Translations under genes and position numbers: made by a program
In this document: in pieces, positions 25,486-61,179 of the stretch
How the letters are laid out: every line of letters begins with the position of its first letter
How positions within the stretch are numbered: position 1 is the first letter of the stretch
Notes under the pieces: generated by a model
Databases searched by the model: none
What the model saw: the letters and a program-made list of their open reading frames with translations, nothing else
What the model was told of the DNA's origin: nothing
From: Candidatus Latescibacterota bacterium
Lineage (GTDB): Bacteria > Latescibacterota > UBA2968 > UBA8231
Reading direction: 5' to 3'
Assembly: GCA_965217585.1 (NCBI GenBank)
Contig: OZ244561.1
Span: 1,137,424 to 1,201,423, forward strand
Length of the DNA: 64,000 nt

Positions 25486-26199
25486 GTGTACAAACGGCTC
25501 TGGGCTTGGTTCGTACTGCTAATCCTGCTGCTGGGGGCTTGCGGCCGCTACTTTCACACGCCGCTCCAGCCTGCCAGCCGCCAAGCCGAGGGCATGACCG
25601 TCAACGACGACGGCTCCATCACCTACGCCCTCGACCGCCTGTCGATCAACCTCAAGCCCATGACGGACGAGGAATTAAACCGCCTCGCTCCTGGGCGAGA
25701 TCTGTCTAACAATCCCTATACCTTTGGCGAATGGACCGCCGCGGGCGACGAGTGGACGCCGCCGCGGTTTACCATTTTTCGGCTCAAGGTCAGCAACTAT
25801 CAATATCCCAAGGTCAAACTCGACCCGCTCAACGCGCGCATTACCACGGCCAACACCCGGCAGTACGAGGTACTCAGCTACGCCGAATTATACCAGTATT
25901 TTCGCTCGTATTGGCTAGGCCGCACGGGCCAAGGGCGCAAAACCTTTCAAGCTCGCACGGACGCGCTCAAGCGGACGCTGTACAGCGGGGCCTTGATCTT
26001 CAGCGGCAGCGAAGAACAGGGGTACTTGGTATTTCCCGTGCTCGACGACGATGTCCGGGCGATCCAAGTATACATAGAAAACATCATCTTGCGCTTCGAC
26101 TATGCAGACGCCCCCGTAGAGGCGATTGACCTGAGCTTCTCCTTCCAGCGCGACATCCTGCAAGGGTATGACCCCTCGGCCGCGGTGCGGCTCAACTGA
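25486..26199 (+). CDS. Lipoprotein, first gene of the discoidin/OM operon
   Basis: GTG 25486 lies 8 nt after GGGGG. The N-terminus VYKRLWAWFVLLILLLGAC has a lipobox (LLGAC). The stop overlaps the next ATG (TGATG). Confidence 0.7.
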   Translation: MYKRLWAWFVLLILLLGACGRYFHTPLQPASRQAEGMTVNDDGSITYALDRLSINLKPMTDEELNRLAPGRDLSNNPYTFGEWTAAGDEWTPPRFTIFRLKVSNYQYPKVKLDPLNARITTANTRQYEVLSYAELYQYFRSYWLGRTGQGRKTFQARTDALKRTLYSGALIFSGSEEQGYLVFPVLDDDVRAIQVYIENIILRFDYADAPVEAIDLSFSFQRDILQGYDPSAAVRLN

Positions 26200-28187: not shown

Positions 28188-28201
28188 CTGCGGTGAGCAA
28201 C

Positions 28202-30241: not shown

Positions 30242-30251
30242 TGGAGACACT

Positions 30252-32609: not shown

Positions 32610-32622
32610 GAGGGAGTGCACT

Positions 32623-35268
32623 GTGAGACGTCGAATCTCCACACTACTAATTTGTCTATTCGCTTGGACGCCGCCGCAAGAGGCCAGCGCCCAACGCGCC
32701 ACTGGGTACGACAATCCCTATTACACCACAGGCGCTGAAGTCTCTCCGGCGACCCTCGTGCCCTCGGTGCGCAAGTGGTATCTGCCGCAGCGGCTGTACT
32801 CGCTGTACGACTGGCGGCAAGAGCAATACTCCAACTACGCCCGCGACCACTACGAGCGCTACACCGATGTCTTTTTGGAAGGCTCGCCGTTCTACGACGT
32901 GTACGGCGATTACATCACCCAAGGCTGGCTGGTGTACGACTGGACCGAAGACTACCCAGAAGACAACGGCAGCATCATTACCAAAAATCCGCGCTTTCGT
33001 TCGTGGTTCAACAACCTGCTCGTATCGTCGAGCCATTCCGGGGAGTTCTACTCGGCCCTGATGGTCGGCGACGGCATCCGCACGGCCCTGACCCCCCTGA
33101 CGTTTTCCAAGCCGCGCTTCGACGGCATTCAGTGGGACCTTATAACCGACAAGTACGCCCTGACCATGCTATCGTCGCGGGTCAGCAACACTGGCGAAAT
33201 TTCCTCCAGTGAAGTCGGGGGTGGCGTCCAGGCCAATACCTTCACCACCCTGATGGCCGCTAGGGGACGGGTGCAGGTCGGGGATTTTGCCGCCCTCGGC
33301 GCGACCTTTGTCAATGCGGCGCATCGCAACTCCAACCTGCCGTTTGGCGACAACTCGCTCAGCGGCTTGCTCAGCGGCCCAATGAACTCGGACTTTGTGC
33401 GCTCCATCGTCGTGCGCATTTCCGACGATTCGCCCGAAGACGGCGAGGGTGGCGCGCTGCTGTCGCGCTGGCGCATCTTCATCGATGGCGTCGAGCACAC
33501 CGGAGACATCGTCCCCGTGGTCGAAGGCGGCATTCGCCGCGGCGGCGCGATTGTGGCCAGCGGCACGGATGTCATCACCCTGACCTATAACATCGAAGAC
33601 TTCTCCCCGAGTACAGAAGACGCCATCGACGATTTCCGCGAGATCAAGCGCATTGAAATCGGCCTCGTACTGGCCAACGACTACAAGGTCGAAGTAACCT
33701 CCAACAAGCAAACCAACAACCTCGGCACGCCCGTATTCCTGCCGGTGTTGCGCGCAGCCGGCAACGTCAAGGATGGCTCGAATCAGGCATTTCACCGGTT
33801 CAGCTACGGCCTGCCGACCGGGACCCGCATGTTGGGCTTCGACCTCGCCATTGCCGACCTGCAAGGCTTTGACTTCCGGGGCGAGTTCGTCCGCAACTTT
33901 CAGTACCGCCGCTTTCCCAACGAGAACGTGGCCAAGAATCAGACGCTGGCCACCAACGAGGCCCAAGCCCTGTACGCGACCGCGCAGAAACGCAACTATC
34001 CCTATACGTTTTTCGCCGAGGTTTTCAGCATCGACTCAGATTACTCCACCCGCGCCTTTATGCCCAACGCCGAGGGACACGTGTATTACGACAACGAGCA
34101 GCGGCACCTGTACGAATTCGTCGATGACAACGACGATCAGGACGAGCTGCCGGACTGGCCGCGGCGCACGTTCGGCAGCCGCGTCAACACTCGGCAGGGG
34201 CAGAATCTGCTGACCGACGCCGCGGTCTTCCCGGGCATTGACGAGAACAACGACGACATTTCGGATTTCAACCGGAACTTCAACACCCAGCCCGACTACG
34301 CGGAGCCGTTTCTGCGCTTTGAGGTGGACCCGCCGGAATTTTTGTTTGGCATGGACATGAACAGCAACGGCGTCATCGACCGCTTCGAGGACGACGGGGA
34401 AGCCGATTACCCCTACAAGCTGGGCCGCCGGGGACTCAACACCTATGCAGCCGTCGAAATCCTGCCCCGCACGACCGTCATGGTTGGCTATCTCGACCAG
34501 CGACTGCTAGATACGGCCCGGGAAAACCAAGCTGCCTACCTGCTGCTGACCGCGAAAAAGGAATTTCCCGCAAAGGATTTCAGCGCGTGGCTGATTGCCA
34601 ATCCGCGCAAGGTCCGAGACGACATTCCCGACGATGTGCTGTTGTGGCGCGACCTGCCCGGCACGCGCGGCCGTTCGGTCTTCACCCGCGACCTTCTGCC
34701 AGCACGCGACGCCTTCGTCAATACCACGTACCTCGAAGTACACTACGACCGCTACCTGCCATTGACGGCCAAGGTCAAACACGAATTCTATCAGCAATTG
34801 GGGAATCAGCAAGACGAGTTGCGCGACCAGAGCTTCTTGGGCATCGTCGTCAAAGGCGAGTACTCCACCCACATTCGCGGCTGGACTATGGTGCCCAAGT
34901 GGAAACAGCTTTACAACAACGAGGTGCCGGCGCAGCGCAGCGCGCTCAAAATACGCGAGCTAACGGAAATTTTCTCGCTGCAAGCCGTGCGCCGCATCAA
35001 CCGCAACATGCGCTTCATCGCCGGGGCCGAGTGCGAGCTGTTCAACAATCTCCGCCCCAAGCCAGACCCCCTGCCCTCGGGCTACCTCCTCGACGGCACC
35101 ACGTGGGTACTCGCCGGCCAAGTCGCCAACGACTCCGCGTACTTGGGCTATGCCCTGACGGCCAATGTCGGCGCGCGCTGGATCCGCAACAACCTCGACG
35201 GGTCGCCGGCTTCGTCCGAGCTGCTTTCCTTCATCACGGTGTACGCGGGCTTGGGCACGGAACGCTAG
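32623..35268 (+). CDS. Large putative outer-membrane protein (~880 aa), last gene of the discoidin operon
   Basis: GTG 32623 lies 6 nt after GAGGGAG and gives signal peptide VRRRISTLLICLFAWTPPQEASAQ. Aromatic-rich beta-strand segments. An Asp/Asn-rich putative Ca-binding stretch (GIDENNDDISDFNRN...MDMNSNGVIDRFEDDGEADY). Confidence 0.7.
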   Translation: MRRRISTLLICLFAWTPPQEASAQRATGYDNPYYTTGAEVSPATLVPSVRKWYLPQRLYSLYDWRQEQYSNYARDHYERYTDVFLEGSPFYDVYGDYITQGWLVYDWTEDYPEDNGSIITKNPRFRSWFNNLLVSSSHSGEFYSALMVGDGIRTALTPLTFSKPRFDGIQWDLITDKYALTMLSSRVSNTGEISSSEVGGGVQANTFTTLMAARGRVQVGDFAALGATFVNAAHRNSNLPFGDNSLSGLLSGPMNSDFVRSIVVRISDDSPEDGEGGALLSRWRIFIDGVEHTGDIVPVVEGGIRRGGAIVASGTDVITLTYNIEDFSPSTEDAIDDFREIKRIEIGLVLANDYKVEVTSNKQTNNLGTPVFLPVLRAAGNVKDGSNQAFHRFSYGLPTGTRMLGFDLAIADLQGFDFRGEFVRNFQYRRFPNENVAKNQTLATNEAQALYATAQKRNYPYTFFAEVFSIDSDYSTRAFMPNAEGHVYYDNEQRHLYEFVDDNDDQDELPDWPRRTFGSRVNTRQGQNLLTDAAVFPGIDENNDDISDFNRNFNTQPDYAEPFLRFEVDPPEFLFGMDMNSNGVIDRFEDDGEADYPYKLGRRGLNTYAAVEILPRTTVMVGYLDQRLLDTARENQAAYLLLTAKKEFPAKDFSAWLIANPRKVRDDIPDDVLLWRDLPGTRGRSVFTRDLLPARDAFVNTTYLEVHYDRYLPLTAKVKHEFYQQLGNQQDELRDQSFLGIVVKGEYSTHIRGWTMVPKWKQLYNNEVPAQRSALKIRELTEIFSLQAVRRINRNMRFIAGAECELFNNLRPKPDPLPSGYLLDGTTWVLAGQVANDSAYLGYALTANVGARWIRNNLDGSPASSELLSFITVYAGLGTER

Positions 35269-35307: not shown

Positions 35308-36300
35308 ATGGGCAACTCGGGTAACAACCTCCTTATAGGGTTTCTGGTCTTCAGCGTTTTGTTTTTTGCGGTGGCATTGCTCGTGGGGCATGACGACGTG
35401 GACGGTGCGGACAGTTTGGCTACATCCGCTTCAGGCACGGCGCGCGGGGACCGTCTCACCCTCGAGAGTCGGCAGTTGCGGCTCGTGTCGACGGTGTGGT
35501 CGCCGTTCACCAACGCGCCAGGACAGCCGCGGTTCGCCCTCAATCTGGTCGGCGAGGCGCTCCGACGCGTGGGGATCATCGCCGAAACGGTCATCGTGGA
35601 CGAGGCCAAGTTTACTTCCTCACTGCTGAGCGGCGAGTTCGACGGGAGCGCGGCCGTGTGGAAGTACGCGGAGCGCGAACCCGTGCTGATTTACTCGCAG
35701 CCGTATGTCTGGAACCGGTTGATCCTCGTCGGGCGGCAGGGCAGCGACGTGTCCGCGACCTCGCTGGCCGACCTCGCCGGCAAACGGATCGCCCTAGTCG
35801 CCGGGTACGTGTATGGCGAGGAAGTCGAGACAACGGACGGGCTGCTCATCGTTGGCTCGACCGGCGAAGAGGACAGCGTCGCAAAACTCCTCAACGGTGA
35901 GGTGGACTACACGCTGATGGACGACTTGGTCGTCCAGTACATCCTCAGCAACTACGAAGAAGAAGCTCAAACGCGGCTGGCGTTCGGCTCGACGCCGCTG
36001 CTCACACGCTCGCTTCACCTCGCAATCCGCCGGTCGCTTCCAGACGCCGAGTCGATCATCTCGCGGTTCAACGCCGAGCTGCGCGGCATGATCGCCGACC
36101 GCACCTACCATCGCCTGTTCCACCTCGAATGGATTCAAGCGGACGTCGATGGCGACGGTCGCAGCGAGCAGGTCCCTTACAACGACCAAGTCGGCCCGCG
36201 CCCGCCGGAGCATTCCTACAAGCTCTCCGCGACGGGCAGTCCGACCGCGAGGCCCGGCACGACGCAGCGTTTCTACTTCATTCGAGCAACCCAAGGCTGA
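35308..36300 (+). CDS. Membrane-anchored family-3 solute-binding-protein-like protein
   Basis: The N-terminal TM leader is shared with 37036 and 42295. The body LRLVSTVWSPFTNAPGQP...LSGEFDGSAAVWKYAEREPVLIYSQPY...LAGKRIALVAGYVYGE resembles SBP_bac_3. No permease or ATPase is nearby. Confidence 0.7.
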   Translation: MGNSGNNLLIGFLVFSVLFFAVALLVGHDDVDGADSLATSASGTARGDRLTLESRQLRLVSTVWSPFTNAPGQPRFALNLVGEALRRVGIIAETVIVDEAKFTSSLLSGEFDGSAAVWKYAEREPVLIYSQPYVWNRLILVGRQGSDVSATSLADLAGKRIALVAGYVYGEEVETTDGLLIVGSTGEEDSVAKLLNGEVDYTLMDDLVVQYILSNYEEEAQTRLAFGSTPLLTRSLHLAIRRSLPDAESIISRFNAELRGMIADRTYHRLFHLEWIQADVDGDGRSEQVPYNDQVGPRPPEHSYKLSATGSPTARPGTTQRFYFIRATQG

Positions 36301-36316
36301 TGCGGGACTGACCCAG

Positions 36317-37039
36317 ATGTTTGTGCCAGTGTCGATGTCCCTGCTGTTTTCGTTTCTCTTCGCCCTGCCCGTGACCTGGGTGTATCGCTGGACTCGGCCC
36401 CGCAAGAAATACAGCCAGGCCTTTGCCCAGACCCTCCTCGTCGTGCCCATTGCGATTGCCCTCGTCGTGTTTCTCGTCAAGGACAGTGTCGCCCTCGCCT
36501 TCAGTCTCGCGGGCATTGTCGCTGCGGTTCGCTTTCGCACGTCGTTGAACGAACCCATGGATGCCACCTATATGTTCATCGTCATTGGCATCGGGTTGGC
36601 GGCCGGTATCCAGTACGGTTCAGTGGCGATCCTGGCATCGGTGGCTTTCAATACCGTTGCACTTGGCGTCTGGCGCATGAACTGGGGAGCAGAGCCTGCG
36701 GTCCTATCCGGGTTCAAGTTGGTGCGTTCGGCCAAGGAGGGGTCGTTGACCGGTGTGAGCGGCGCACAGGCGGGTAAAGCTCCCAAACCGTATAATGCCA
36801 GGCTCAGGGTACACACGACGCAGATCAAGGCGGCGCAGCAGGCCGCTGTTGCGCTCCTGCCGACCTATGCCAAGCGCTGGCAGCAGGTGCGGACTGTAAA
36901 ACAGAAAGACGGCACTGCGATAGTCGAGTTTGACGTTCGGCTGAAGAAAAAAACGGATCCGGCCGCTTTCACCGCAGCGCTTGAAAAAAGCGCTGAGGGG
37001 CATACCCGCAAAGTGGAGTTGGAAGGTATGGGTAAATGA
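36317..37039 (+). CDS. DUF4956-like membrane protein (copy A, N-terminally shorter)
   Basis: The segment FVPVSMSLLFSFLFALPVTWVYRWTRPRKKY...ALAFSLAGIVAAVRFRTSLNEPMDATYMFIVIGIGLAAGI matches my recollection of the DUF4956 core. Paralogue of 41282..42298. Confidence 0.7.
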   Translation: MFVPVSMSLLFSFLFALPVTWVYRWTRPRKKYSQAFAQTLLVVPIAIALVVFLVKDSVALAFSLAGIVAAVRFRTSLNEPMDATYMFIVIGIGLAAGIQYGSVAILASVAFNTVALGVWRMNWGAEPAVLSGFKLVRSAKEGSLTGVSGAQAGKAPKPYNARLRVHTTQIKAAQQAAVALLPTYAKRWQQVRTVKQKDGTAIVEFDVRLKKKTDPAAFTAALEKSAEGHTRKVELEGMGK

Positions 37040-38052
37040 GCAGCCGGGGTAACAACTTCCTGATAGGGTTTCTGGTCTTCAGCGTTCTGCTTTTTGCGGT
37101 GGCATTGCTCGTGCGGCAGGACGCGGCGATCGATTCCGACGTGGACGTGCAGCATCATAGCACAGCAGGGATCGCACATGCGAAGGAGGACGAGGCAATC
37201 GATTCCAACGTGGATGCCGCGGACAGTTTGGCATCCACATCCGCTTCAGGCACGGCGCGCGGGGACCATCTCACTCTCGCGAGTTACGACCTCGAAAAGC
37301 CGGCGCGGTATTTCAAGCTGCCGAAGCGGTTGCGGGAGATTTCCGGCTTGGCCATGCTCGCCGAGAACCGACTCCTCGCGCACGATGACGAAAGGGGCGT
37401 GGTAGTAGAGATCGATTATCGCGATGGTTCGATTGTAAAGGCATTCGCACTCGGCGGTCGGCGCGGTCCGGTCGCCGACGACTTCGAGGGCATCGCCGCG
37501 GCTGCCGGTCGCATATACCTTGTCTCGAGCTCAGGACGGTTGTACGAGTTTGGCGAAGGTGCCGACGGGGAGGCCGTTCTCTACAATCTGTATGCAACCG
37601 GCATTGGACGAGATTACGAAATAGAGGGACTCGCCTACGACCCGGACCAACGAGTGCTGTTGCTCGTCAGCAAAAACCCCAAAAACCCCGGGCAGGCGGG
37701 CCTGATAGCGATATATCGCTGGTCCGTCGATACCAAACAGCTCGTCGAGGATGGCCGTATCCTCCTAGAGGCCTCCGCGCTGGCGCGCCGCATTGGCAGC
37801 AAACGATTCCAACCTTCGGGCATCGAGCGGCACCCGGTATCGGGAAACTACTTTCTCGTGGCTGCCCGCCAGCGCGCCGTTGCCGAGATTACCCCACAGG
37901 GACAGATTCTCGCCGTAGCCGAACTGGCACCCGGTCGGCATCCGCAGGCCGAGGGCATTTCCTTTGCTTCCGACAATACCTTGATCATAGCCGACGAAGG
38001 GGCGGGGAAGCGCGCACGCCTGAGCTTCTACCCCGTTGCAAAGGGCCGCTAG
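37036..38052 (+). CDS. YjiK/SdiA-regulated-like beta-propeller protein, membrane-anchored (copy A)
   Basis: TM leader, then repeated blade motifs EISGLA, DFEGIAA, IEGLAYD, PSGIERHP and AEGISF. ATGA overlap with the upstream gene. Confidence 0.75.
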   Translation: MSSRGNNFLIGFLVFSVLLFAVALLVRQDAAIDSDVDVQHHSTAGIAHAKEDEAIDSNVDAADSLASTSASGTARGDHLTLASYDLEKPARYFKLPKRLREISGLAMLAENRLLAHDDERGVVVEIDYRDGSIVKAFALGGRRGPVADDFEGIAAAAGRIYLVSSSGRLYEFGEGADGEAVLYNLYATGIGRDYEIEGLAYDPDQRVLLLVSKNPKNPGQAGLIAIYRWSVDTKQLVEDGRILLEASALARRIGSKRFQPSGIERHPVSGNYFLVAARQRAVAEITPQGQILAVAELAPGRHPQAEGISFASDNTLIIADEGAGKRARLSFYPVAKGR

Positions 38053-38135
38053 CGGCGCGCAAAAGAGCGACAATCTGCCGGCGCATTGGATGGGCAGGAC
38101 GTACAGTTGACAACCCCAAAAGCGAAGGAGTTTCC

Positions 38136-40847
38136 ATGATGACGCCTCCGAAGCGGCGCGCCATGTTTCTCCCGTTGGTGCTCGTTCTTTCCGTTCCGGC
38201 GGCATCGGCGTCCCAGGAAGACCCACCGGCTCCCGGGTCCATGATCCGCCGCTCCATTCCGCCTCCGGGCGCGACGACCCACCTGGTGATTCCCGGGGAG
38301 CGGTTCCGGACCTCCTCGTTTCGGCGCTGGTTCTACGGCAGCAACTACCGCGACCTCTGGACCACGCCGGTCGAGGTTCAGGTCCTTGACCTCGATCGGG
38401 TGGGAGGGGGCCTGACGCCGCTTCGCACCGGCGGCTTCGGACAGTCCATCTCGCTCCACTTCACCGGGCAGGATGGCCGCCGCTATACGGTCCGTTCGCT
38501 AGACAAGGACGCCACCCGACGGGTACCGGACATCGTCAGGAAAACGGTCGTGGGCGAAGTCCTTCAGGACCTGATCAGCGCGATGCTGCCCACCGGGGCG
38601 CTCGTGGTCGATCCCCTGATGGAAGCTACCGGCATCCTCCATTCCAGGCACGCGCTGGTTGTGATTCCGGATGATCCCCGGCTCGGAGAGTACCGCGCTT
38701 CCTTTGCGGGCTTGATAGGACTGTTGCAGGAGCATCCTTCCGAAGGCCCGGACGATACCGCCGGCTTCGCCGATTCCCGGAAGGTGAGCGGAACCGACAA
38801 GCTGTGGGACGACCTCGAAGACGGCCCCTGTGACCGTGTCGATGCCCGAGCCTTTCTCAAGGCGCGACTCATGGACTTTCTCATCGGCGACAAGGACCGT
38901 CATCACGGCCAGTGGCGATGGGCGCGGTTCCCCGACGGGGATTGCCATACCTGGCTCCCGATACCCGAGGATCGCGACCAAGCCTTCATTGATTTCGACG
39001 GGTTTGCGATGGCGTTAGCGCGCCGAGCGATACCTATCCAGATCCGGTTCGAGGACAGCTATCCAAATCTGGTTGGCCTGACCATGACCGGTTGGGAGTT
39101 GGATCGCGAGTTCCTGGCCGAACTCGACCGGACGGCGTGGGATGCGGTGGTAGCGGAATTTCGTGAGGACCTGCCGGATCCCGTCATCGAAGATGCAGTC
39201 CGCCGCCTCCCCCTGCCGTACTACGAAGGCGTCGGCGAAGCTCTTGCCAAGACCCTCAAGTCGCGGCGCGACGCGCTGCCTGATTTTGCCGACCGATACT
39301 ACGAGTTGATCACTCGCCAGGCCGAAATCCGGGCGACCGACCGGGACGAGGACCTCCACTGCGAGCACCTGCAGAACGGTGATCTCGTCGTCCGTATCGG
39401 TCTCGCCGAAGGACCCGGGGGAGAAAGAACGGCGCCCTGGTTCGAGCGGACGTTCCACGCCGAAGAAACGCGGGAGGTCCGCATAGCCCTCCGGGGGGGA
39501 GACGACAGCGCGGAGGTATCGGGGACGAACGGACGGATTTCCGTTCGCATCGATGGTGGCGGCGGGGATGACACCTTCGTCAACGCGTCCGGGGTTGGCG
39601 CTTCCAGAACGGCGTTCTACGACTCTCGCGGGAAGAATCGGTTTGTCGAGGGCAACGGAGCGCGAACCGACGAGCGTCCCTACCGACGCCCGCCCGCCAC
39701 CCACACGCCCAATGCCAAGTACGCGCTGGATTGGGGCATGCAGGCGTCAACCATCCCGATCGTCGAGGTGGATCGGGATCTGGGTGCGTTCCTCAGCATG
39801 TCTCACAGCCGGCAGTATTTCGGCTATCGCCGAGACCCGTTCGCTGCACGGCATTCCTTCAGCCTCGGGTTCGCCAGCAGCGGTCTCAAGCCCATTGCCT
39901 CCTATAGCGGCACCTTTCGCCGCCTTCTCCGCGATCTCGACGCCACCGTTCACCTCGAGTACTCCGGTGTCGAGACGGTCCGTTTCACCGGCTTCGGTAA
40001 CGACACGCAGCTTCTGGGTTCGTCCGACTTCTACAAGGTGGAACAGAAAATCTTTGTTTTCTCGCCCGCCATCGAGTTTCGCAGGGAACAGCGTCATGGA
40101 GAGGCGCACGCTGGGGGGACAAAACCACGGCGCTCGGAAACAGCGATCAGTCTGGGGCCCATCGTCAAGTACTCCAGCACGCCACTGGCTGCCAACCAGG
40201 ACAAATACATCGCTTCTCTGGATCACCCGGTGTACGGCATGGGTTCCTTCGGCCAGGTAGGAGCGCAGGGACGGGTCGAGTACGACACCCGCAACAATCC
40301 GGCGTACCCCACGAGCGGTCTCCTGGTCCGAGGCACCGGAGCCATCTACCCCGGCACCTGGGATGCAAAGTCGGCCTTTGGCACCGCAGAGGGAGCGGTG
40401 CATGCCTACCTGACGGCTCGTATTCCGACCACCCCCACCCTGGCCCTGAGAGCGGGCGGGAAGAAGGTATGGGGGACCTTCCCCTTCCACGAGAGCGCCT
40501 TCCTCGGCGGGCCCGGCTTTGCCGGTGTCGGCACCTCTGGCGGTCAGGTCCGCGGTGTTCGCAAGGACCGGTTTGCGGGAGACGCCTCGGTGTATGCAAA
40601 TGCCGAACTGCGCTTCGCGGTTGCCGCCTTCCGGCTCTTGATGCCGGGAGAGTTCGGCGTGTTTCTTGGCGCTGATACCGGCCGGGTATTCTTCGCCGGG
40701 GACCGGGCCGACGTCGGCAAATGGCACACCGGCGTCGGGGGTGGATTCTGGCTGTCGTTCCTCCAACGCCGACAGTCCGTGAGCGTTGCGGTCATGGAGG
40801 GCGCTGAAATGACGGGACTGTACGTGCGCGCCGGTTTCCTGTTCTAG
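38136..40847 (+). CDS. 903-aa protein: atypical-kinase-like N-domain plus Omp85/surface-antigen-like C-terminal barrel (copy A)
   Basis: Has a signal peptide and RBS AAGGAG. N-domain motifs TGGFGQSISLHF...YTVRSLDKD, DFLIGDKDRHHGQWRW and WLPIPEDRDQAFIDFDG. C-terminus FHESAFLGGPG...RGVRKDRFAGDASVYANAELRF...YVRAGFLF is typical of Omp85-family barrels. Confidence 0.8.
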   Translation: MMTPPKRRAMFLPLVLVLSVPAASASQEDPPAPGSMIRRSIPPPGATTHLVIPGERFRTSSFRRWFYGSNYRDLWTTPVEVQVLDLDRVGGGLTPLRTGGFGQSISLHFTGQDGRRYTVRSLDKDATRRVPDIVRKTVVGEVLQDLISAMLPTGALVVDPLMEATGILHSRHALVVIPDDPRLGEYRASFAGLIGLLQEHPSEGPDDTAGFADSRKVSGTDKLWDDLEDGPCDRVDARAFLKARLMDFLIGDKDRHHGQWRWARFPDGDCHTWLPIPEDRDQAFIDFDGFAMALARRAIPIQIRFEDSYPNLVGLTMTGWELDREFLAELDRTAWDAVVAEFREDLPDPVIEDAVRRLPLPYYEGVGEALAKTLKSRRDALPDFADRYYELITRQAEIRATDRDEDLHCEHLQNGDLVVRIGLAEGPGGERTAPWFERTFHAEETREVRIALRGGDDSAEVSGTNGRISVRIDGGGGDDTFVNASGVGASRTAFYDSRGKNRFVEGNGARTDERPYRRPPATHTPNAKYALDWGMQASTIPIVEVDRDLGAFLSMSHSRQYFGYRRDPFAARHSFSLGFASSGLKPIASYSGTFRRLLRDLDATVHLEYSGVETVRFTGFGNDTQLLGSSDFYKVEQKIFVFSPAIEFRREQRHGEAHAGGTKPRRSETAISLGPIVKYSSTPLAANQDKYIASLDHPVYGMGSFGQVGAQGRVEYDTRNNPAYPTSGLLVRGTGAIYPGTWDAKSAFGTAEGAVHAYLTARIPTTPTLALRAGGKKVWGTFPFHESAFLGGPGFAGVGTSGGQVRGVRKDRFAGDASVYANAELRFAVAAFRLLMPGEFGVFLGADTGRVFFAGDRADVGKWHTGVGGGFWLSFLQRRQSVSVAVMEGAEMTGLYVRAGFLF

Positions 40848-40850
40848 CCG

Positions 40851-41030
40851 AGGGAAGCGGCGAGGCCCATGTTCAACAACAGCCTCGTGCGCCTCGCAGG
40901 GTATTACTTCGCGTGGTACCTCGGCCTGTGCCGCTACCGCATCAGCACCCTCAAGAGACAGGACGACAACAAGCAGAGCAATCGCCCGGCGACGCAGCCA
41001 TGGACGGATGAAGCGCGCGATTCGGTTCAT
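40851..41030 (-). pseudogene. Relic 5' end (signal-peptide region) of a third Omp85-like paralogue
   Basis: MNRIARFIRPWLRRRAIALLVVVLSLEGADAVAAQ aligns with the copy-B N-terminus MNRNEHLSSPWLRRRATALLVAALHLGGADAVVAK, with matching DNA runs. Similarity fades and ends at the stop codon of copy A. Confidence 0.5.
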
Positions 41031-41281
41031 AAAATCGGATGCTCGTTTTTGCCCTGTTTTTGACGGGCGTGCTCATTCAGCGCGTCAAGGGCTTGTTCCC
41101 ATACCCCGCGTTTAAGCTATAGTACAAACACAGCTCTTTTAACTCAACAGCTTCTAATTAATTGCACACAATTGCGCTTCAATTTTTTGGTGTATATCTT
41201 AGCCGACCGCGGAGCGTTCTGTTCGCATCTGTGATCCCGACGCGACCTGCATTGCGGAAACAGTGGTAAAAGGAACTGATA

Positions 41282-42298
41282 ATGCTCGACAAAATAACTG
41301 AGGGGCTCGACAAAATAACAGATAGGCTCGACAACGTAATCGTCCGTCTCGTGGCTTACTATATTGCCATATCCCTTTTTTTTGCGAGCATTTTGTTGTT
41401 GTTGCCAGACATCTCGATTTACATAACCAAGGGAGAGATGAGTTCCATATTAGCCATTTTGTCATCCCCGCAATTCGGGGCAGAGTTCGGGCGCTTACTG
41501 GAAGAGTCCAGGGTCTCCGGGGCCGATCCGAAGCTGGAACCGGAAGAGATCGAGCGCTTACTGGAAAAGTCCGGTGGCTTCCACCTCTCGACGTTCGTGC
41601 CGATTTCGATGGCACTGCTGTTTTCGTTTTTCTATGCCCTGCCCGTGACTTGGGTGTATCGCTGGACCCGGCCCCGCAAGAAATACAACCCAGACCTTGT
41701 CCATACCCTCCTCGTCGTGCCCATTGCGATTTCCCTCGTCGTTTTTCTCGTCAAGGACAGTATCGCGCTCGCCTTCAGTCTCGCGGGCATTGTCGCCGCA
41801 GTTCAGTTCCGCGCGACATTGAGGGACCCCCTAGATGCCACCTACATGTTCATCGTCATTGGCATCGGATTGTCGGCTGGTATCGGTATCGGTCAAGTGG
41901 CTATTTTGGCCTCGGTGGCTTTCAATGCCGTTGTTTTGGGCATCTGGCGCATGAACTACGGGGCGAAGCCTGCTGCCCTGTCCGGGTTCAGGCTGGTGCG
42001 TCCCGCCAAGTCGTTGCCCGGTGTGAGCGGCACCCAGGCGGGTAAAATCCCCAAATCGTATAATGCCAAGCTCAGGGTACATACGGCGCAGGTCGAGGCG
42101 GCACAGCAGGCCGCTGTTGCGCTCTTGGCGACCTATGCCAAGCGGTGGCGACAGGTGCGGATTGTGCAGCAGGAGGACAGCACTGCGATCGTCGAATTTG
42201 ACGTGCGGCTGAAGAAAACCGCAGATCCGGCCGCCTTCACTAGAGAGCTTGAAAAAAGTACAGAGGGCCATACCGTCAAAGTGGAGCTGGAATTATGA
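41282..42298 (+). CDS. DUF4956-like membrane protein (copy B, full length)
   Basis: 338 aa. Carries an extra N-terminal ~100 aa with a TM helix, then the same core as copy A (ALPVTWVYRWTRPRKKY...ALAFSLAGIVAAVQFR...). Confidence 0.8.
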   Translation: MLDKITEGLDKITDRLDNVIVRLVAYYIAISLFFASILLLLPDISIYITKGEMSSILAILSSPQFGAEFGRLLEESRVSGADPKLEPEEIERLLEKSGGFHLSTFVPISMALLFSFFYALPVTWVYRWTRPRKKYNPDLVHTLLVVPIAISLVVFLVKDSIALAFSLAGIVAAVQFRATLRDPLDATYMFIVIGIGLSAGIGIGQVAILASVAFNAVVLGIWRMNYGAKPAALSGFRLVRPAKSLPGVSGTQAGKIPKSYNAKLRVHTAQVEAAQQAAVALLATYAKRWRQVRIVQQEDSTAIVEFDVRLKKTADPAAFTRELEKSTEGHTVKVELEL

Positions 42299-43260
42299 GT
42301 GCCCCGAGTAACAACCTCCTGAGCGGGTTTTTGGTCTTCAGCGTTTTGATTTTTATAGCGTCATTGCTCGTGCGGGAGGACGCGGCAATCGAACCCGTCG
42401 TGGACACCGCAGCCGACACCGCGGACAGTTTGGCATCTACATCCTCATTCGCTCTAAGCACGCCGCACGAGGACAACCTTACCCTCGCGAGTTACGACCT
42501 CAAAAAACCAGCGCGGCGTTTCAAGCTGCCGAAGCAGTGGCGGGAGATCTCCGGCTTGACCATGCTTGGAGAGAACCGACTCCTCGCGCACGATGACGAA
42601 AGGGGCGTAGTATTCGAGATAGACTATCGCGATGGTTCGATTGTAAAGGCGTTTGCACTCAGCGATCAGCTCGATCCGGTCGCCGACGACTTCGAAGGCA
42701 TCGCCGCGGCTGAAGGCCGCGTGTACCTCGTTTCGAGTTCAGGGCGGTTATACGAGTTTGTCGAAGGCTCCGATGGAGAGACTGTTCTCTACAATCTATA
42801 TACAACCGGAATTGGACGAGACCACGAAATAGAGGGACTCGCCTACGACCCGGACCAACGGGTGCTATTGCTCATCAGCAAAAACCCCAAGAACCCCGGG
42901 CAGACAGGCCTAGTAACGATATGTCGCTGGTCCCTCGATACCAAGCAGCTCGTCGAGGGTGGCCATATCCTCATACCAGCCGTCGCGCTCTCGAGCCGCA
43001 CCGACAGCAAGCGATTCCAACCTTCGGGCATCGAGCGGCACCCGGTATCGGGAAACTACTTTGTCGTGGCGGCCCGCCAGGGCGCCATTGCCGAGATTAC
43101 CCCAAAGGGACAGGTCCTCGCCGTCGCGGATCTTGCGGCTGATCGGCATCCACAGACCGAGGGCATTGCGTTTACTTCCGACAATACACTGATCGTATCC
43201 GACGAAGGGGTGAGCAAGCGCGCGACCCTGACTTTTTACTCCGTTTCAAAGGGCCGGTAA
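42295..43260 (+). CDS. YjiK/SdiA-regulated-like beta-propeller protein, membrane-anchored (copy B)
   Basis: Collinear with 37036..38052 (NRLLAHDDERGVVFEIDYRDGSIVKAFAL, RFQPSGIERHPVSGNYF). ATGA overlap with the upstream gene. Confidence 0.8.
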   Translation: MSAPSNNLLSGFLVFSVLIFIASLLVREDAAIEPVVDTAADTADSLASTSSFALSTPHEDNLTLASYDLKKPARRFKLPKQWREISGLTMLGENRLLAHDDERGVVFEIDYRDGSIVKAFALSDQLDPVADDFEGIAAAEGRVYLVSSSGRLYEFVEGSDGETVLYNLYTTGIGRDHEIEGLAYDPDQRVLLLISKNPKNPGQTGLVTICRWSLDTKQLVEGGHILIPAVALSSRTDSKRFQPSGIERHPVSGNYFVVAARQGAIAEITPKGQVLAVADLAADRHPQTEGIAFTSDNTLIVSDEGVSKRATLTFYSVSKGR

Positions 43261-43316
43261 TTGCAGGCTTGTCCCGGCGGACGGAATCTTTGTGGCCACC
43301 CAGGCGTTACTTGGGA

Positions 43317-44471
43317 ATGAACTATCCCCAAAAAGCGACGCGCCGGCGCGGTTTAGCGCTGGGGATCGTCTTGCTCTTGGCGCTGGTCGTGGTCGTAGCA
43401 GGTTGCCGGGCGGGGCACCTGCAAGGGGAGAACTACGGTGCCGACGACGAGCCGTACATCCGGCGGGATGTCCCGTCGGATGCGATCGCGACCAGCGGTC
43501 GGGTCGCGTATCGAGTCATCTTGGTCGGAGACACTGGGGAGCCGGTGCCGGACGATCCCACCCTTGCCGCAATCGGGCGCTGGGCGGCTCCGCAGGAGCG
43601 GGCCGCGGTCGTGCTACTGGGGGACAACCTCTACCCGTCGGGGCTTGCAGCCGATGACCGCGCTAGGGGTGAAGCCATTTTGCGCCAGCAGCTCGCGGCG
43701 ACCTCGGCGCTGCGGATTTTCGTGCCGGGCAACCACGATTGGGGCTCTTCACCGCAAGACTGGACGGGAGCGCACGTCGTCGCGCAGCAGGAATTCGTGC
43801 TTGCGTGGCCAGAGGGCGACGTGGACTTCCTACCCCGCGATGGATGCGCCGGCCCAGTCGTGCGCGAGTTGCTCAAGCCTGGGGATGGGCTGGAGCAGGG
43901 GGTCGCGGTCGTCGCCATTGACTGGATGCCTTGGTTCTCACCGGTCGCCGACACTAGCAGGTGCCCGGACGGGGATTTCGGGGCGCGGATCGACGCGGCC
44001 TTCTCGGCCCTAAAGAGGCATTTCGTGATCGTGGTGAGCCACTTTCCGCTGCGCTCGGGCGGCATCCGCGCCGGCTTCAGCCGCGGGTTCATCATCGACT
44101 TCTTCATAGACTTCTATCACCTGCTGCGACCGCGACCGCCCCTCAATCTGTACAATCCGCAATACATGGTCCTCGCAAAGCAGGTGAAGGACGCGTTAGC
44201 AAGACACCGGCCCCTCGTCTATGCCGCGGGACACGATCACAGCCTACAGCTCTTCGAGGCGGACGAAGTCGCTCGGATGCACATCGTGAGCGGGGCGGGT
44301 TCGGCCGGCAAAGTGTCGCCCGTAACCGCCGTGGCCGGGACGATCTTCGCCCACGCCGTCCCGGGATTCGCGGTACTCGATTTCGCAATCCACGACGGAG
44401 TTGACACCCCAGTCGTACGCATCGTGAGAACTGGGCAGGAAGTGCCCGTGTTCCAGATGCGCATTCCGTAG
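43317..44471 (+). CDS. Calcineurin-like metallophosphoesterase, lipoprotein
   Basis: Lipobox VVVAGC. Motifs VILVGDTGE, LLGDNLYPSG, VPGNHDW and AAGHDHS. Confidence 0.8.
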   Translation: MNYPQKATRRRGLALGIVLLLALVVVVAGCRAGHLQGENYGADDEPYIRRDVPSDAIATSGRVAYRVILVGDTGEPVPDDPTLAAIGRWAAPQERAAVVLLGDNLYPSGLAADDRARGEAILRQQLAATSALRIFVPGNHDWGSSPQDWTGAHVVAQQEFVLAWPEGDVDFLPRDGCAGPVVRELLKPGDGLEQGVAVVAIDWMPWFSPVADTSRCPDGDFGARIDAAFSALKRHFVIVVSHFPLRSGGIRAGFSRGFIIDFFIDFYHLLRPRPPLNLYNPQYMVLAKQVKDALARHRPLVYAAGHDHSLQLFEADEVARMHIVSGAGSAGKVSPVTAVAGTIFAHAVPGFAVLDFAIHDGVDTPVVRIVRTGQEVPVFQMRIP

Positions 44472-44508
44472 CGTGATTTCGCGTGACCGGACAATCCGAA
44501 CCGGGTTT

Positions 44509-47154
44509 CTAAAACATGAATCCGCCGCGCAGGTATATGCCGGTCAAATCCTCGCCCTCCATCATCGCCGCGCTCAACGTCGCCCGACGCTTGAGAAACG
44601 AGATCCAAAGCCCGCCGCCGCTGCCAATGTGCCAGCCATCGGCCTCCTCCGAGTCGGCGTCGAAGAATACCCGCCCCGCATCGACGGCGGCGAATGCGCC
44701 AAGTTCACCCGGAGACGGGAACCGGATTCGAGTCAGCCGCACCCGGAACTCACCGTTCCCGTAGAGGGCGGACTCGCCAGCGAAGCGGTCCTCGCGGAAG
44801 CCCCGCAGGTTGTCGGGGCCGCCGACCGCGGCGGCTTCGTGGAACGGAAACGCGCCGCGGATGGTTTTGCCGCCCACGCGCAGGGCGAGAGTGGGCAGAG
44901 TGGGAACGTTGGCTGACAGGTACGCAGATGCGTCGCCGGCAACGTAGCCGAAGGTCGATTCGACGTCCCACAGCTTTGGGTAGAGTTCGCCGCTGAGCCT
45001 GAACCGCACGCCCCGCCGGGCATGGCCCGAATTGTCTCGGGCATCGTAAACGAGTTCCCCGCCGACGCCGATCTGCCCGAAGGCCTCCGTCCCGTACAGG
45101 GGCGTCTCATAGGTGGCGATGAACTTCCCCTTGTTGTCGTGCAAAGGGGTGTCGGTAAACTTGACGAGCGGCCCGCCGGTCAGAGTCCACATCCCCTGCG
45201 ACCGATCAGAGACCCAAAGGAGCGTGGGCGCGAAGAGGAACTGCGCCTGCTCCACCTCGTAGAACGACTCGGCACGCAGGATCTCAACGTCGTTTCCGAA
45301 GCCGTTGAAGCGAATCACGTTGAAGCTGGAGTATTCCATCTGAAGCAGACCGTCTAGGTCCCGCAGTAGATGCCGGAACTTCCCAGAATAGGCAACAAGG
45401 GGTTTGGTTCTCGCGCTAGCGGTGACTCCGAGGTCGAACGAGTGTTGCGACGCATACGGCTTCTTCCGATAGCCATGGTATATCCGGGTGTAGAACAGCC
45501 CGGCGTAGGCACCGAGGTCTGGGCTGTAGCTGACGATCGGCAGCGAAACCGTCTCCCAGCCCCAGTCGATGACGTACCTGTCCGTAACCGCCCTCGAGGG
45601 AGCCGGCCGCTTGTACGGCCGCTCGTCGATCAGGGCCTTGTGCGCGTCGAAGCGGTTCTCACCGCGAGCGTCGTAGAATCGCGTCATCCACCGTCCAGCC
45701 CGCGACCGGTTCGCGTAGGTATCGCCGCCGCTGCCGCCATCGACGCGGGCCCTGATCTTAGCCCGCTCTCCGAGGAGGACGATCTCATCGTCCCCGCCGT
45801 GTAGGTAGATCCTGACTTCCTTTGTCTCATGGGGATACAGGGTGCGGCGGAAGTACGGGGCGCTCTGCGTCCCCGCCAAGCGGATGCGAACCTCTAACTC
45901 GCCGTTCTCTCGATGTTCCAATTCGAGGTACTCGTCCTCGTCCGTCCCCTTGATCTCAACCTCTCTGCTAATAAACTCGTAGTACCGTGCTGCGAACTCG
46001 CCGAGATGGTCGCGGCGCGTCTTCAGCGCCCGGGTGAGGAAATCCCCCACCTGCTCGTAGTACGGGTCCGGCAATCGCCGGACGGCGTCCTCAATCACCG
46101 GGTCCGGCAGTTCGGCCTGCACCGTGGTGGCCACGGAGTCCCACGCGCTCCACTCCAACTCGGCCAGTAGCTCGCGGTCGAGTTCCCAGCCGTTGCGGGG
46201 GAGTCCTCGGTGGTCCGGGTACTGCTCTTGAAAGCGGACGTATTTGGGCTCGATCCAGCGCACCAGCTTCATGAGTAGGCCGTCGAAATCGATGAAGGCT
46301 TGGTCCCGGTCTTCGGGGATGGGTAACCACGTGTAGCAGTCTCCGACCGGAAATCGCGCCCAGCGCCATTGGCCCGAGTGCCGATCCTTGTCGCCGACGA
46401 GAAAATCGACGAGTCGCGCCTTGAGATAAGCGCGCGCATCAACTCGTTCGCAGGGCGTCTTTTCGAGGCGCTTGTATAGCTTGTCCGTGCCGCTCACCTT
46501 GCGGGATCCGGCAAATCCCGGCTCATCGTCGGCCGCTTCGGACGGATGTTCCTGCAAGGTGCCGATCAGCCCGGCAAACTCTTGGCGATACTCTCCCAAC
46601 CGCGGATCGTCGGGGATTACTACCAGCCGGTGCGACGCGTGCAGTATGCCCGTTGCTTCCATCAGCGCATCCACCACCAGCCCCCCCGTCGGCAGCAGGG
46701 CACTCATGAGATCTTGAATCACATCCTCGACGACGGTATCCTTGAGTTCCTCCATCAGCCGCTTGGATGGATCCTTGTCGAGGGAGCGCACCGTGTAACG
46801 GCGGCCGTCCTGGCCCACAAAATGCAGCGAAATGGACTGGCCAAAGCCGCCCGTGCGCATGGGCGACAATCCGCCGCCCACCGCATCGAGATCGAGGATC
46901 GGCACCTCGATCGGCGTCGTCCAGATCTGGCGATAGTTGCTACCGTAGATCCACCGCTGCAAACGACCTGCTTTGAATCGCTCACCCGGTACCACCACGT
47001 GCATCGTGTCGCCCTTCTCCGGGATAGAGCGATGAATTAGCTGGCCGGCCTTTGCCACTACCGCATCAGCACCCCCAAGATGCAGGGCAGCAACAAGCAG
47101 CGCCGTCGCCCGGCGACGTAGCCAAGGACTGCTCAGATGCTCGTTTCGGTTCAT
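44509..47154 (-). CDS. ~880-aa protein: atypical-kinase-like N-domain plus Omp85-like C-terminal barrel (copy B)
   Basis: Full-length paralogue of 38136..40847 (TGGFGQSISLHFVGQDGRRYTVRSLDKD; VDFLVGDKDRHSGQWRW; WLPIPEDRDQAFIDFDG; C-terminus ...IYLRGGFMF). ATG 47154 is preceded by GGAGGG. Confidence 0.8.
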   Translation of the reverse strand: MNRNEHLSSPWLRRRATALLVAALHLGGADAVVAKAGQLIHRSIPEKGDTMHVVVPGERFKAGRLQRWIYGSNYRQIWTTPIEVPILDLDAVGGGLSPMRTGGFGQSISLHFVGQDGRRYTVRSLDKDPSKRLMEELKDTVVEDVIQDLMSALLPTGGLVVDALMEATGILHASHRLVVIPDDPRLGEYRQEFAGLIGTLQEHPSEAADDEPGFAGSRKVSGTDKLYKRLEKTPCERVDARAYLKARLVDFLVGDKDRHSGQWRWARFPVGDCYTWLPIPEDRDQAFIDFDGLLMKLVRWIEPKYVRFQEQYPDHRGLPRNGWELDRELLAELEWSAWDSVATTVQAELPDPVIEDAVRRLPDPYYEQVGDFLTRALKTRRDHLGEFAARYYEFISREVEIKGTDEDEYLELEHRENGELEVRIRLAGTQSAPYFRRTLYPHETKEVRIYLHGGDDEIVLLGERAKIRARVDGGSGGDTYANRSRAGRWMTRFYDARGENRFDAHKALIDERPYKRPAPSRAVTDRYVIDWGWETVSLPIVSYSPDLGAYAGLFYTRIYHGYRKKPYASQHSFDLGVTASARTKPLVAYSGKFRHLLRDLDGLLQMEYSSFNVIRFNGFGNDVEILRAESFYEVEQAQFLFAPTLLWVSDRSQGMWTLTGGPLVKFTDTPLHDNKGKFIATYETPLYGTEAFGQIGVGGELVYDARDNSGHARRGVRFRLSGELYPKLWDVESTFGYVAGDASAYLSANVPTLPTLALRVGGKTIRGAFPFHEAAAVGGPDNLRGFREDRFAGESALYGNGEFRVRLTRIRFPSPGELGAFAAVDAGRVFFDADSEEADGWHIGSGGGLWISFLKRRATLSAAMMEGEDLTGIYLRGGFMF

Positions 47155-47211
47155 CTCTTTATCACCCTCCATGGCTAAACAACGGACAGCAAAGTACGGG
47201 ATAGATAGCTC

Positions 47212-57496: not shown

Positions 57497-57771
57497 GCTT
57501 GCGCTTTGAGTGGGATATCAATAAGGCAACTGCTAACGTGGCAAAGCACAATGTGAGTTTTGCAGAAGCAGCCACTGTATTTCGCGATCCAATTGCTGCT
57601 ATTTTCGATGATGAAGCTCACTCAAACGAGAAACGTAGAGAATTCATCATTGGACATTCCGATAAGAACCATTTGCTTTTAGTATGCTTCTCTGAGCGAG
57701 ACGATGCCATCCGCATTATCAGTGCTCGGCAAGCAACAAGGAGGGAACGCCAAGATTATGAAGAATACTGA
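57493..57771 (+). CDS. brnT: BrnT-family type II toxin
   Basis: The segment FEWDINKATANVAKHNVSFAEAATVF...RIISARQATRRERQDYE is the BrnT signature as I recall it. ATGA overlap with the hsdM stop. Confidence 0.85.
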   Translation: MSLRFEWDINKATANVAKHNVSFAEAATVFRDPIAAIFDDEAHSNEKRREFIIGHSDKNHLLLVCFSERDDAIRIISARQATRRERQDYEEY

Positions 57772-57997
57772 ATCCGTTAAACAGACCGCTGGCGCAGCGG
57801 ATGAGATGCGAGATGAATACCAGTTCGACTACAGTAAGGCGAAGCCCAACCGCTTTGCGGACAAAATTGGACGCGAGCAGTTGATGGTCGTTCTCGATCA
57901 AGACGTCGCGGCTGTATTCAAGACTCCTGAATCTGTTAACCAAGTACTGCGAGCGATTATCACCTCAATGCCAATCGCGGAAAAAGGAGATAGCTAA
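57758..57997 (+). CDS. brnA: BrnA-family antitoxin
   Basis: Overlaps the brnT 3' end. The sequence is ...DEYQFDYSKAKPNRFA...VVLDQDVAAVFKTPESVNQVLRAII. The start at ATG 57758 follows AAGGAGGGA. Confidence 0.75.
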   Translation: MKNTESVKQTAGAADEMRDEYQFDYSKAKPNRFADKIGREQLMVVLDQDVAAVFKTPESVNQVLRAIITSMPIAEKGDS

Positions 57998-58009
57998 AAA
58001 AATAAAAGC

Positions 58010-58402: not shown

Positions 58403-58538
58403 TTTTGGTCTTCGCTGTTCTGTGTCAGAAGCATAAAAAGAAAGGGATCCTCAGACGACGCAGATAATCCGTCAGTCCCGTGAAAGGGGGGCGAGAGGCC
58501 GGACTTGGGCAGGTACAGATAGCAGGAGGAGTAACGGC

Positions 58539-59333: not shown

Positions 59334-59336
59334 GGG

Positions 59337-59423: not shown

Positions 59424-59454
59424 CATAGATACACTCAGCGGAAAGGACAGAGAC

Positions 59455-61162: not shown

Positions 61163-61179
61163 AGCACAGGGTGATGAGT

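Follow-up and report, generated by a model that had tools for sequence, protein, structure and literature searches.

A predicted kinase-like domain joined to an Omp85-type barrel in two paralogous proteins of a Candidatus Latescibacterota bacterium and their relatives

In this study, we undertook a computational analysis of a 64,000-nucleotide stretch of DNA from a Candidatus Latescibacterota bacterium (contig OZ244561.1, positions 1,137,424 to 1,201,423; hereafter the window), focusing on two genes for paralogous proteins, A and B, in which a signal peptide, an N-terminal domain (N-domain) with kinase-like motifs and an Omp85-type outer-membrane barrel appear to be combined in one polypeptide. 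The coordinates of the genes, their domains and the adjoining cassette are collected in Table 1. An earlier reading of the window made from the letters alone (the sequence-only reading) had singled out nucleotides 38427–38999, which encode aa (amino acids) 98–288 of protein A, and had claimed that motifs typical of kinases are present there in both of these ~900-aa paralogues. All of those motifs were found at those residues in protein A, and protein B, which is 54% identical to A over its full length, carries the same set.

Table 1. Coordinates in the window of the two barrel proteins, the predicted elements of protein A and the neighbouring genes of the cassette
Feature	Position	Strand	Size or residues	Basis or comment
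DUF4956 inner-membrane protein, copy a	36317-37039	+	240 aa	PF16316, E 2.3e-12
Beta-propeller, membrane-anchored, SdiA-regulated/phytase-like, copy a	37036-38052	+		PF13449, PF06977
Protein A gene	38136-40847	+	903 aa	
Protein A, Sec-type signal peptide	38136-38210	+	aa 1-25	reading of the sequence; ends ...SVPAASA, followed by SQ
Protein A, predicted protein-kinase-like (PKL) fold domain	38268-39320	+	aa ~45-395	AlphaFold2 model, Foldseek
Protein A, Gly-rich loop TGGFGQS (family consensus GGGxQT)	38427-38447	+	aa 98-104	lies between model strands aa 93-99 and 106-111
Protein A, RSLDKD, with R120 and K124 as candidate phosphate-binding beta3 Lys	38493-38510	+	aa 120-125	conservation, model
Protein A, D145, candidate acidic residue of alphaC-equivalent helix	38568-38570	+	aa 145	125/127 homologues; model helix aa 138-149
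Protein A, putative catalytic loop DFLIGDKDRHHGQWRW	38874-38921	+	aa 247-262	aligned to CtkA ADTLLGNFDRHNGNWGF
Protein A, WLPIPEDRDQAFIDFDG, with D279 as putative DFG-Asp equivalent	38952-39002	+	aa 273-289	aligns to Asp of CtkA 'APIFD'
Protein A, all-beta linker (predicted beta-sandwich)	39321-39680	+	aa ~396-515	strands throughout in the model
Protein A, Omp85-type barrel, ends ...GFLF	39738-40847	+	aa ~535-903	PF01103, NF047779
DUF4956 protein, copy b	41282-42298	+		PF16316, E 3.8e-12
Beta-propeller, SdiA-regulated/phytase-like, copy b	42295-43260	+		PF13449, E 1.9e-10
Metallophosphoesterase lipoprotein (lipobox VVAGC; GDNLY, GNHD, GHDH)	43269-44471	+		PF00149, E 2.9e-7
Protein B gene	44509-47172	-	887 aa	architecture as protein A; kinase-like domain about 45958-47010

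Several features of the two proteins point to export to the outer membrane, in agreement with what had been proposed from the sequence. Protein B, like A, has a signal-peptide-like N-terminus, and a hydrophobic N-terminal region is present in 106 of 127 mostly full-length homologues (~40% identity) that were gathered without bias by motif. The barrel model PF01103 is matched above its gathering score of 24 in both paralogues (25.1 bits in A and 29.3 bits in B), NF047779 is matched as well (E 8.5e-19 and 2.3e-24, respectively), and a search of the PDB with a whole-protein profile matched BamA chains, solely through the barrel; the barrel alone matched none of the PDB sequences. Protein B ends in ...GFMF and the C-terminal residue is aromatic (F/Y/W) in 110 of the 127 homologues which, together with the frequency of the hydrophobic N-terminal region, makes the family as a whole look like exported outer-membrane proteins.

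The domain order that had been suggested, from signal peptide through N-domain to barrel, was borne out, but the N-domain and barrel do not adjoin directly as a predicted beta-sandwich lies between them. The latter has weak profile matches to collagen adhesin and designed Ig domains. It also carries a single RTX-like GGxGxD turn of the calcium-binding type (IDGGGGDDTF, 39549–39578, with the nonapeptide GGGGDDTFV and family consensus GGxGDD), in which G475 and D479 are >90% conserved. No POTRA model was matched in A or B, nor does there appear to be a POTRA unit, because residues 396–515 are all-beta in the model and the barrel begins at about residue 535, leaving no room for a beta-alpha-alpha-beta-beta unit. 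An Omp85 protein without POTRA is unusual.

The strongest indication of the nature of the N-domain came from an AlphaFold2 model of aa 40–530 of protein A, which was built on a 132-sequence alignment and has a mean predicted local distance difference test score (pLDDT) of 94.9 and a predicted TM-score (pTM) of 0.94. The order of secondary-structure elements in the model is that which is canonical for kinases. Foldseek comparison of the model with the PDB had kinase-fold proteins as all of its best 50 matches (50/50), and the candidate catalytic residues are near-invariant among homologues, the reverse of the non-kinase fold and unconserved residues that had been named beforehand as counter-evidence. 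The top match was Helicobacter pylori CtkA (3akk, E 3.5e-6, probability 1.0, TM-score 0.50 normalised to CtkA), and further matches included Fam20C (5yh0, E 4.4e-4), Rio2 (4gyi) and type II alpha phosphatidylinositol 4-kinase (PI4K-II alpha; 4yc4, E 1.3e-3, and 5eut, E 5.3e-3), as well as YihE, COQ8A, antibiotic kinases and eukaryotic protein kinases.

Sequence comparisons gave a fainter signal in the same direction. The first ~560 residues of proteins A and B have no significant match in Pfam, NCBIfam or the PDB sequences. A profile of 80 N-domains from GTDB species genomes (a biased set, since its members were recruited by the motif GDxDR[HG]x[DGN]QW) found CtkA among the PDB sequences with an E value of 0.075, aligning its 'lDlllGDwDRHkdQWrW' to ADTLLGNFDRHNGNWGF of CtkA and D279 to the Asp of 'APIFD'. 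The latter Asp and that of the DRH motif are reportedly the catalytic and metal-binding residues of CtkA. Comparison with an alignment of the CtkA family, whose members carry PF07804 (HipA_C), by hhalign gave an E value of 1.1e-4 and a probability of 56% over 151 columns of the C-lobe only, taking in the catalytic loop and the helical C-lobe that follows the active site. The restriction to the C-lobe and the modest strength of that match arise because the CtkA-fragment database search gave mainly short sequences without the N-lobe, and no alignment of the N-lobe to a known kinase was obtained from the CtkA-family comparison.

A Pfam scan of 80 family members at E <= 10 revealed no recurrent kinase family. 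PF07804 was matched by none of the 80 at that threshold, PF00454 (PI3_PI4_kinase) by neither A, B nor any of the 80, and CotH (PF08757) by one of the 80, below threshold (E 0.0088), and by none of the rest. The suggestion that the domain might belong to CotH, PI3/4K or HipA_C specifically is therefore unsupported by the Pfam models of those families, and by these profile searches the N-domain is outside all current Pfam kinase families. A patatin-like lipase domain was likewise not matched in the N-domain, whose predicted fold is kinase-like instead.

The absence of Pfam kinase matches, the hhalign probability of only 56% and TM-scores to kinases that are modest (<=0.51) are what would be expected if the N-domain were not kinase-like and its motifs resembled those of kinases by chance. 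We consider that explanation very improbable, as the best 50 structural matches are all kinases with a top Foldseek probability of 1.0, the motifs lie on the expected secondary-structure elements of the model, and sequence profiles, independently of structure, match the catalytic loop to that of CtkA. Overall, the model provides strong structural evidence for a kinase fold, and the sequence evidence, though weak, agrees with it. A PKL fold for the N-domain, with a loop of the HipA/CtkA/PI3-4K type (D-R-H-x-x-Q/N) and a D-R-D metal element, is supported by the model.

The model also allowed candidate roles to be assigned to individual residues. In the N-lobe, the Gly-rich segment sits between two strands, like the P-loop of a kinase, and YTVRSLDKD corresponds to aa 117–125 of protein A, so that R120 is inside the third strand (aa 116–121) and K124 is three residues past its end. 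Together with D145 and the GGGxQT loop, these two residues are on the expected kinase secondary-structure elements of the model, and their N-lobe roles are best regarded as candidates. In the C-lobe, a helix (aa 237–249) leads into G251-D-x-D254-R-H-x-x-Q259, where D254 is the putative catalytic base and Q259 the putative Asn-equivalent metal ligand. The likeness to a DRHxxN catalytic loop of the PI3/4K type that the sequence-only reading had pointed out was upheld, in that the family profile aligns GDxDRHxxQW with GNFDRHNGNW of CtkA. A beta-hairpin follows (strands aa 260–267 and 270–277), and then D279-R-D281. The reading had also proposed a metal-binding element of the CotH or DFG type at aa 273–289; an element does lie there, but its metal-binding Asp would be D279 of the DRD rather than part of the later 'DFDG'.

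The residues to which these roles have been assigned are conserved in a large family. A HMMER scan with aa 31–560 of protein A against 1.84 billion cluster representatives (clusters at 50% identity) identified 3007 representatives at E <= 1e-3, 1381 of them at E <= 1e-30, and most are ~860 aa in length, implying that they share the same architecture. In the set of 127 homologues, W75, R120, K124, R244, D252, R255, D279, D281 and G289 are invariant (127/127), R72 is present in 126, D145 and D254 each in 125, G100 in 122 and Q103 in 116, whereas position 259 has either Q (116 homologues) or N (11). Conservation of the D/H/Q and DxD residues, which had been proposed as a check, is thus evident for D252, D254, R255, D279 and D281, with Q/N at 259, and the alignment of 80 N-domains agrees with it. 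The exchange of Q and N at what would be the place of the metal-binding Asn of kinases is telling, and the agreement of the motifs, as judged from the alignments, is far more than chance. The 80 loci are from Gemmatimonadota, Latescibacterota, Poribacteria, Vicinamibacteria, Ignavibacteria, Chlorobi, Calditrichaceae, Rhodothermales and Bacteroidota, and the taxa represented make it probable that relatives in culture can be found in Gemmatimonas, Ignavibacterium, Melioribacter or Chlorobium.

Conservation of this kind bears on whether the domain is an enzyme. Possibly, it is instead a non-catalytic kinase-fold module, i.e., a pseudokinase or a scaffold for ligands that stands in for POTRA and would bind, for instance, a client protein or phosphorylated polymer for the barrel. 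The PKL domain does occupy the place of the absent POTRA, 116 of the 127 homologues have Gln in place of the canonical Asn, and the periplasm is not known to contain ATP. Non-catalytic PKL scaffolds have also been reported (10.64898/2026.09.18.752743). Nevertheless, K124, D254, Q/N259 and D279 are invariant or nearly so over several phyla, whereas pseudokinases usually lose some such residues, and we regard a scaffold role as quite unlikely.

The genes around proteins A and B form a cassette that is present twofold. The first copy consists of DUF4956, propeller and protein A genes, and the second of DUF4956, propeller and metallophosphoesterase genes, with the protein B gene convergent with the last of these. 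The stop of the first DUF4956 gene overlaps the start of the propeller gene by 4 bp, and the same gene order, with a protein identical to A, was found on a 7.26-Mb metagenome contig in ENA. Both propellers and an SBP_bac_3-like protein (35308–36300) have a near-identical N-terminal membrane anchor, M..NN(F/L)L(I/S)GFLVFSVL.F...LLV. These shared anchors and the twofold cassette (35308–47172) suggest that the locus was shaped by internal duplication and recombination. A scan for promoters and terminators between 35.0 and 47.6 kb gave nothing informative.

An AlphaFold2 model of the second DUF4956 protein (pLDDT 76.5) starts with a helix, continues with a helical membrane bundle and ends in an ACT/ferredoxin-like beta-alpha-beta-beta-alpha-beta domain. 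Its only PDB matches were to ACT/ferredoxin-like domains, through that C-terminal part; among them was MgtC's C-terminal domain (2lqj), pointing to an architecture like that of MgtC. We had considered DUF4956 as a polyphosphate channel like the membrane domain of VTC; the model gave no VTC match and that candidate was set aside as having no structural support.

Other parts of the window have features of their own. Directly upstream of the cassette is a 901-aa open reading frame (ORF; 32563–35268) that includes a signal peptide and has matches in neither Pfam nor NCBIfam. It is 93% conserved in a near-identical Latescibacteria locus (L003) and was not found beside other family members. It is preceded by genes for three successive large secreted proteins (26199–32609; 662, 685 and 785 aa) that have C-terminal FlgD_ig/CHU_C sorting domains for type IX secretion and are otherwise unannotated. 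At the far end of the window (56000–64000) the GC content drops from ~0.60 to 0.42–0.50 past ~56 kb, near a gene for a type I restriction-modification methylase, HsdM (55946–57496), and this low-GC end may be a horizontally acquired island.

To place the cassette in a wider context, we clustered the flanking ORFs of the 80 best loci from GTDB species genomes. The neighbour counts are minima because many of the loci are short contigs. Three kinds of neighbour from the window recur, usually directly upstream of the kinase-Omp85 gene on the same strand: DUF4956 in 20–26 of the 80 loci, the phytase-like propeller in 27–28 and the metallophosphoesterase in at least 16. Polyphosphate kinase (PPK1), identified by all four PPK Pfam domains with E values down to 2.5e-58, is encoded within 8 kb in 22 of the 80 loci (L010, L011, L017, L018, L020–L023, L028, L032, L037, L039, L041, L048, L054, L056–L058, L064, L068, L070 and L080), all in Gemmatimonadota or Ignavibacteria. 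That frequency is far above the rough expectation (well under 1%) for a gene that occurs about once per genome. An exopolyphosphatase gene (PPX/GppA) was found in three loci, L039, L048 and L068, in each of which it lies between ppk1 and the kinase-Omp85 gene. Less frequent neighbours are a PAP2 phosphatase (6 of 80), a small His_Phos_1 phosphatase (5 of 80) and a second metallophosphoesterase (3 of 80).

Two further neighbours are recorded here as observations. In nine loci (L033, L049, L052, L056, L057, L062, L064, L075 and L077) a protein with an HD domain and a PycTM membrane domain of the Pycsar effector type is encoded near the kinase-Omp85 gene, often with the His_Phos_1 (SixA-like) phosphatase adjoining ppk1. 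In three Gemmatimonadales loci (L044:6137-8362, L078:3277-5505 and L079:5532-7640) the gene directly downstream of that for the kinase-Omp85 protein codes for a 741-aa MFS-type transporter with HEAT repeats. The transporter matches TLC ATP/ADP translocases weakly and below cutoff (E 3.7e-4), and could offer a lead on how nucleotides might reach the periplasm.

Some of these neighbours would suit an outer-membrane lipid or lipopolysaccharide kinase, which would phosphorylate lipid A, an inositol lipid or a sphingolipid head group with periplasmic ATP or another nucleotide as donor and no involvement of polyphosphate, its action being reversed by PAP2 and the metallophosphoesterase. PAP2 lipid-phosphatase genes adjoin the family gene in the six loci noted above, the TLC-like transporter gene is directly downstream in three, the structural matches include PI4K-II alpha (4yc4 and 5eut), and a membrane tether suits a lipid substrate. 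This explanation nevertheless seems unlikely to us: there is no established periplasmic source of ATP, the PAP2 and TLC-like neighbours occur in a minority of loci, the adjacency of PPK1, PPX and DUF4956 is left unaccounted for, and the nearest structural match, CtkA, is a protein kinase.

The tie between the phosphoesterase and the kinase-like domain can be closer than adjacency. In two proteins, P0201 (1335 aa) and the product of L077:6363-10505, a lipoprotein signal, PF00149, the kinase-like domain and the Omp85 barrel form a single chain in which the catalytic motifs of both enzymes are intact. Chains of this kind link the phosphoesterase with the kinase-like domain in a single process. 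A possible further fusion is encoded at L032:3590-7315.

The fusions are also relevant to where the domain would be. Potentially, the N-domain is a passenger that is displayed or secreted through or beside the barrel in the manner of type V systems and acts on host or environmental targets. The best structural matches do include the secreted kinases CtkA and Fam20C, and the close relatives of the window's proteins are from metagenome-assembled genomes of Latescibacterota, Poribacteria and Gemmatimonadota that may be host-associated. However, members of the family occur widely in lineages that live freely in soil, sediment and freshwater, its partners (the membrane-anchored propeller and the lipoprotein phosphoesterase) face the periplasm, and the phosphoesterase is in some cases fused upstream and preceded by a lipobox, which would fix the N-terminus to a membrane. 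In addition, the enzyme domain of the analogous protein PlpD stays periplasmic (PMC11116518). A surface-displayed or secreted kinase is decidedly improbable in our assessment. The default topology for the family would have the N-domain in the periplasm, with the PKL domain kept at the outer membrane's inner face, much like the patatin domain in PlpD.

Taken together, the predicted fold, the near-invariant residues of catalytic type, the signal peptide and barrel, and the conserved neighbourhood of phosphoesterases, DUF4956 and often ppk1 and ppx are, in our judgement, best explained by an exported, barrel-tethered PKL domain that is an active phosphotransferase, in which explanation we have moderate confidence. 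The domain would act on a substrate in the envelope with the adjacent or fused phosphoesterase as its partner, and the setting of its activity may be a phosphate or polyphosphate pathway.

The source of the phosphoryl group is the more speculative part of this proposal. Since the periplasm is generally thought to be without ATP, polyphosphate made by PPK1 may be the phosphoryl donor. The most speculative step is that such polyphosphate would be passed outward with the help of DUF4956. Our leading hypothesis, held with low confidence, is that polyphosphate is a donor or ligand and that DUF4956 connects the polymerase of the cytoplasm with the enzyme outside it. A precedent of sorts comes from the pel loci of Gram-positive bacteria, which have a conserved accessory set of CotH, a polyphosphate polymerase and DUF4956 (bioRxiv 10.1101/768473), and the parallel between that set and the kinase-like domain with PPK1 and DUF4956 is suggestive. 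In its fullest form, the proposal would be that of an ATP-independent periplasmic phosphotransferase, tethered to the outer membrane and supplied by PPK1 with polyphosphate via DUF4956, as the diderm counterpart of the CotH module, with the phosphoesterase and propeller as opposing or processing hydrolases. We put this forward tentatively and think it rather unlikely as a whole; if true, diderm and Gram-positive modules would both power phosphorylation outside the cytoplasm.

A number of points weigh against an active phosphotransferase in a polyphosphate pathway. Adjacency to PPK1 was seen in only the two phyla, could stem from a shared regulon of the Pho type rather than a shared pathway, and does not extend to the window itself, where ppk1, PAP2, HD-PycTM and His_Phos_1 genes were looked for and not found. 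In its model, DUF4956 looks like an MgtC-type membrane protein bearing an ACT-like domain, and there was no match to the VTC polyphosphate channel. Sequence likeness to any kinase family is marginal (CtkA at E 0.075, hhalign at 56% and no Pfam kinase models). Furthermore, we know of no PKL enzyme that uses polyphosphate as donor.

The sequence-only reading had remarked that a kinase-like domain on an outer-membrane barrel was an architecture of which it had seen no description. Our searches of the literature on Omp85-kinase architecture, DUF4956 and periplasmic or exported polyphosphate likewise turned up no paper on the architecture and no description of the family. The PKL fold and the Omp85 scaffold are each known, and it is their combination that is new in the libraries and literature searched. 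To our knowledge, no periplasmic or outer-membrane-anchored kinase-fold enzyme is known in bacteria. The family comprises ~3000 clusters that have no Pfam or NCBIfam model, have near-invariant kinase motifs and lie in a conserved operon together with genes for extracytoplasmic phosphoesterases, often beside ppk1 and ppx. If the domain is active, the Omp85 scaffold, associated with inserting and secreting proteins and with lipase activity, gains a new function, what donates phosphoryl groups outside the cytoplasm becomes a directly testable question, and a first functional handle is provided on DUF4956 and the unexplained 'Metallo' Omp85 proteins.

Comparison with known kinase-fold systems highlights both what is shared and what sets the family apart. 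CtkA is secreted as a small soluble protein and HipA is a cytoplasmic toxin, whereas the family is exported and fused to an outer-membrane barrel. The loop G-[ND]-x-D-R-H-x-x-[NQ]-W and a metal-binding Asp ~20 residues further on are common to the family and CtkA (H. pylori JHP0940) or HipA_C, but the family mostly has Gln for Asn, a DRD metal element and an extra insert of ~90 residues between the N-lobe and the catalytic loop. Type II phosphatidylinositol 4-kinases (PF00454) are similar in their DRHxxN-type loop, structural matches and membrane association, and differ in that they are in another compartment and their Pfam model does not match the family, for which a lipid substrate is a hypothesis only. 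Fam20C, the Golgi casein kinase, and CotH resemble the family in having a PKL fold in a secretory or extracytoplasmic compartment, although their catalytic motifs differ and neither is fused to a barrel. CotH has a further likeness, as its genes occur with those for DUF4956 and a polyphosphate polymerase (10.1101/768473) and those of the family with DUF4956 and PPK1 genes. A preprint of September 2026, in which structure was used to mine PKL domains, described three families, none of which is tied to an Omp85 barrel (10.64898/2026.09.18.752743). One of these, SEAE1, is a bacterial PKL of PIK-like type that is rich in Bacteroidota, structurally nearest to lipid kinases and has a PAP2 neighbour. 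Compared by description only, the catalytic residues reported for it (D216, N221, D241 and D243) are spaced 5/20/2, as are D254, Q259, D279 and D281 of protein A. In contrast to the family, SEAE1 is described as intracellular and non-secreted, is without an Omp85 barrel, and has 76 residues rather than 130 between Lys and Asp.

Among barrel proteins, the closest parallel is PlpD (patatin, POTRA and barrel), which also is an Omp85 barrel bearing an N-terminal enzyme domain, one that has been shown to be periplasmic (PMC11116518). The family differs from it in having an enzyme domain that is kinase-like rather than a lipase and in lacking POTRA. A 2014 survey of Omp85/TpsB proteins by Heinz and Lithgow recognised ten subfamilies, including PlpD and 'Metallo' (PF00149), and had no kinase-bearing group (PMC4104836). 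In 'Metallo' Omp85 proteins PF00149 is part of the barrel polypeptide, whereas in the window it is encoded by a separate adjacent gene, and in P0201 and L077 it is fused. The fusions, P0201 in particular, suggest that at least some 'Metallo' Omp85 proteins carry an unrecognised kinase-like domain between PF00149 and the barrel.

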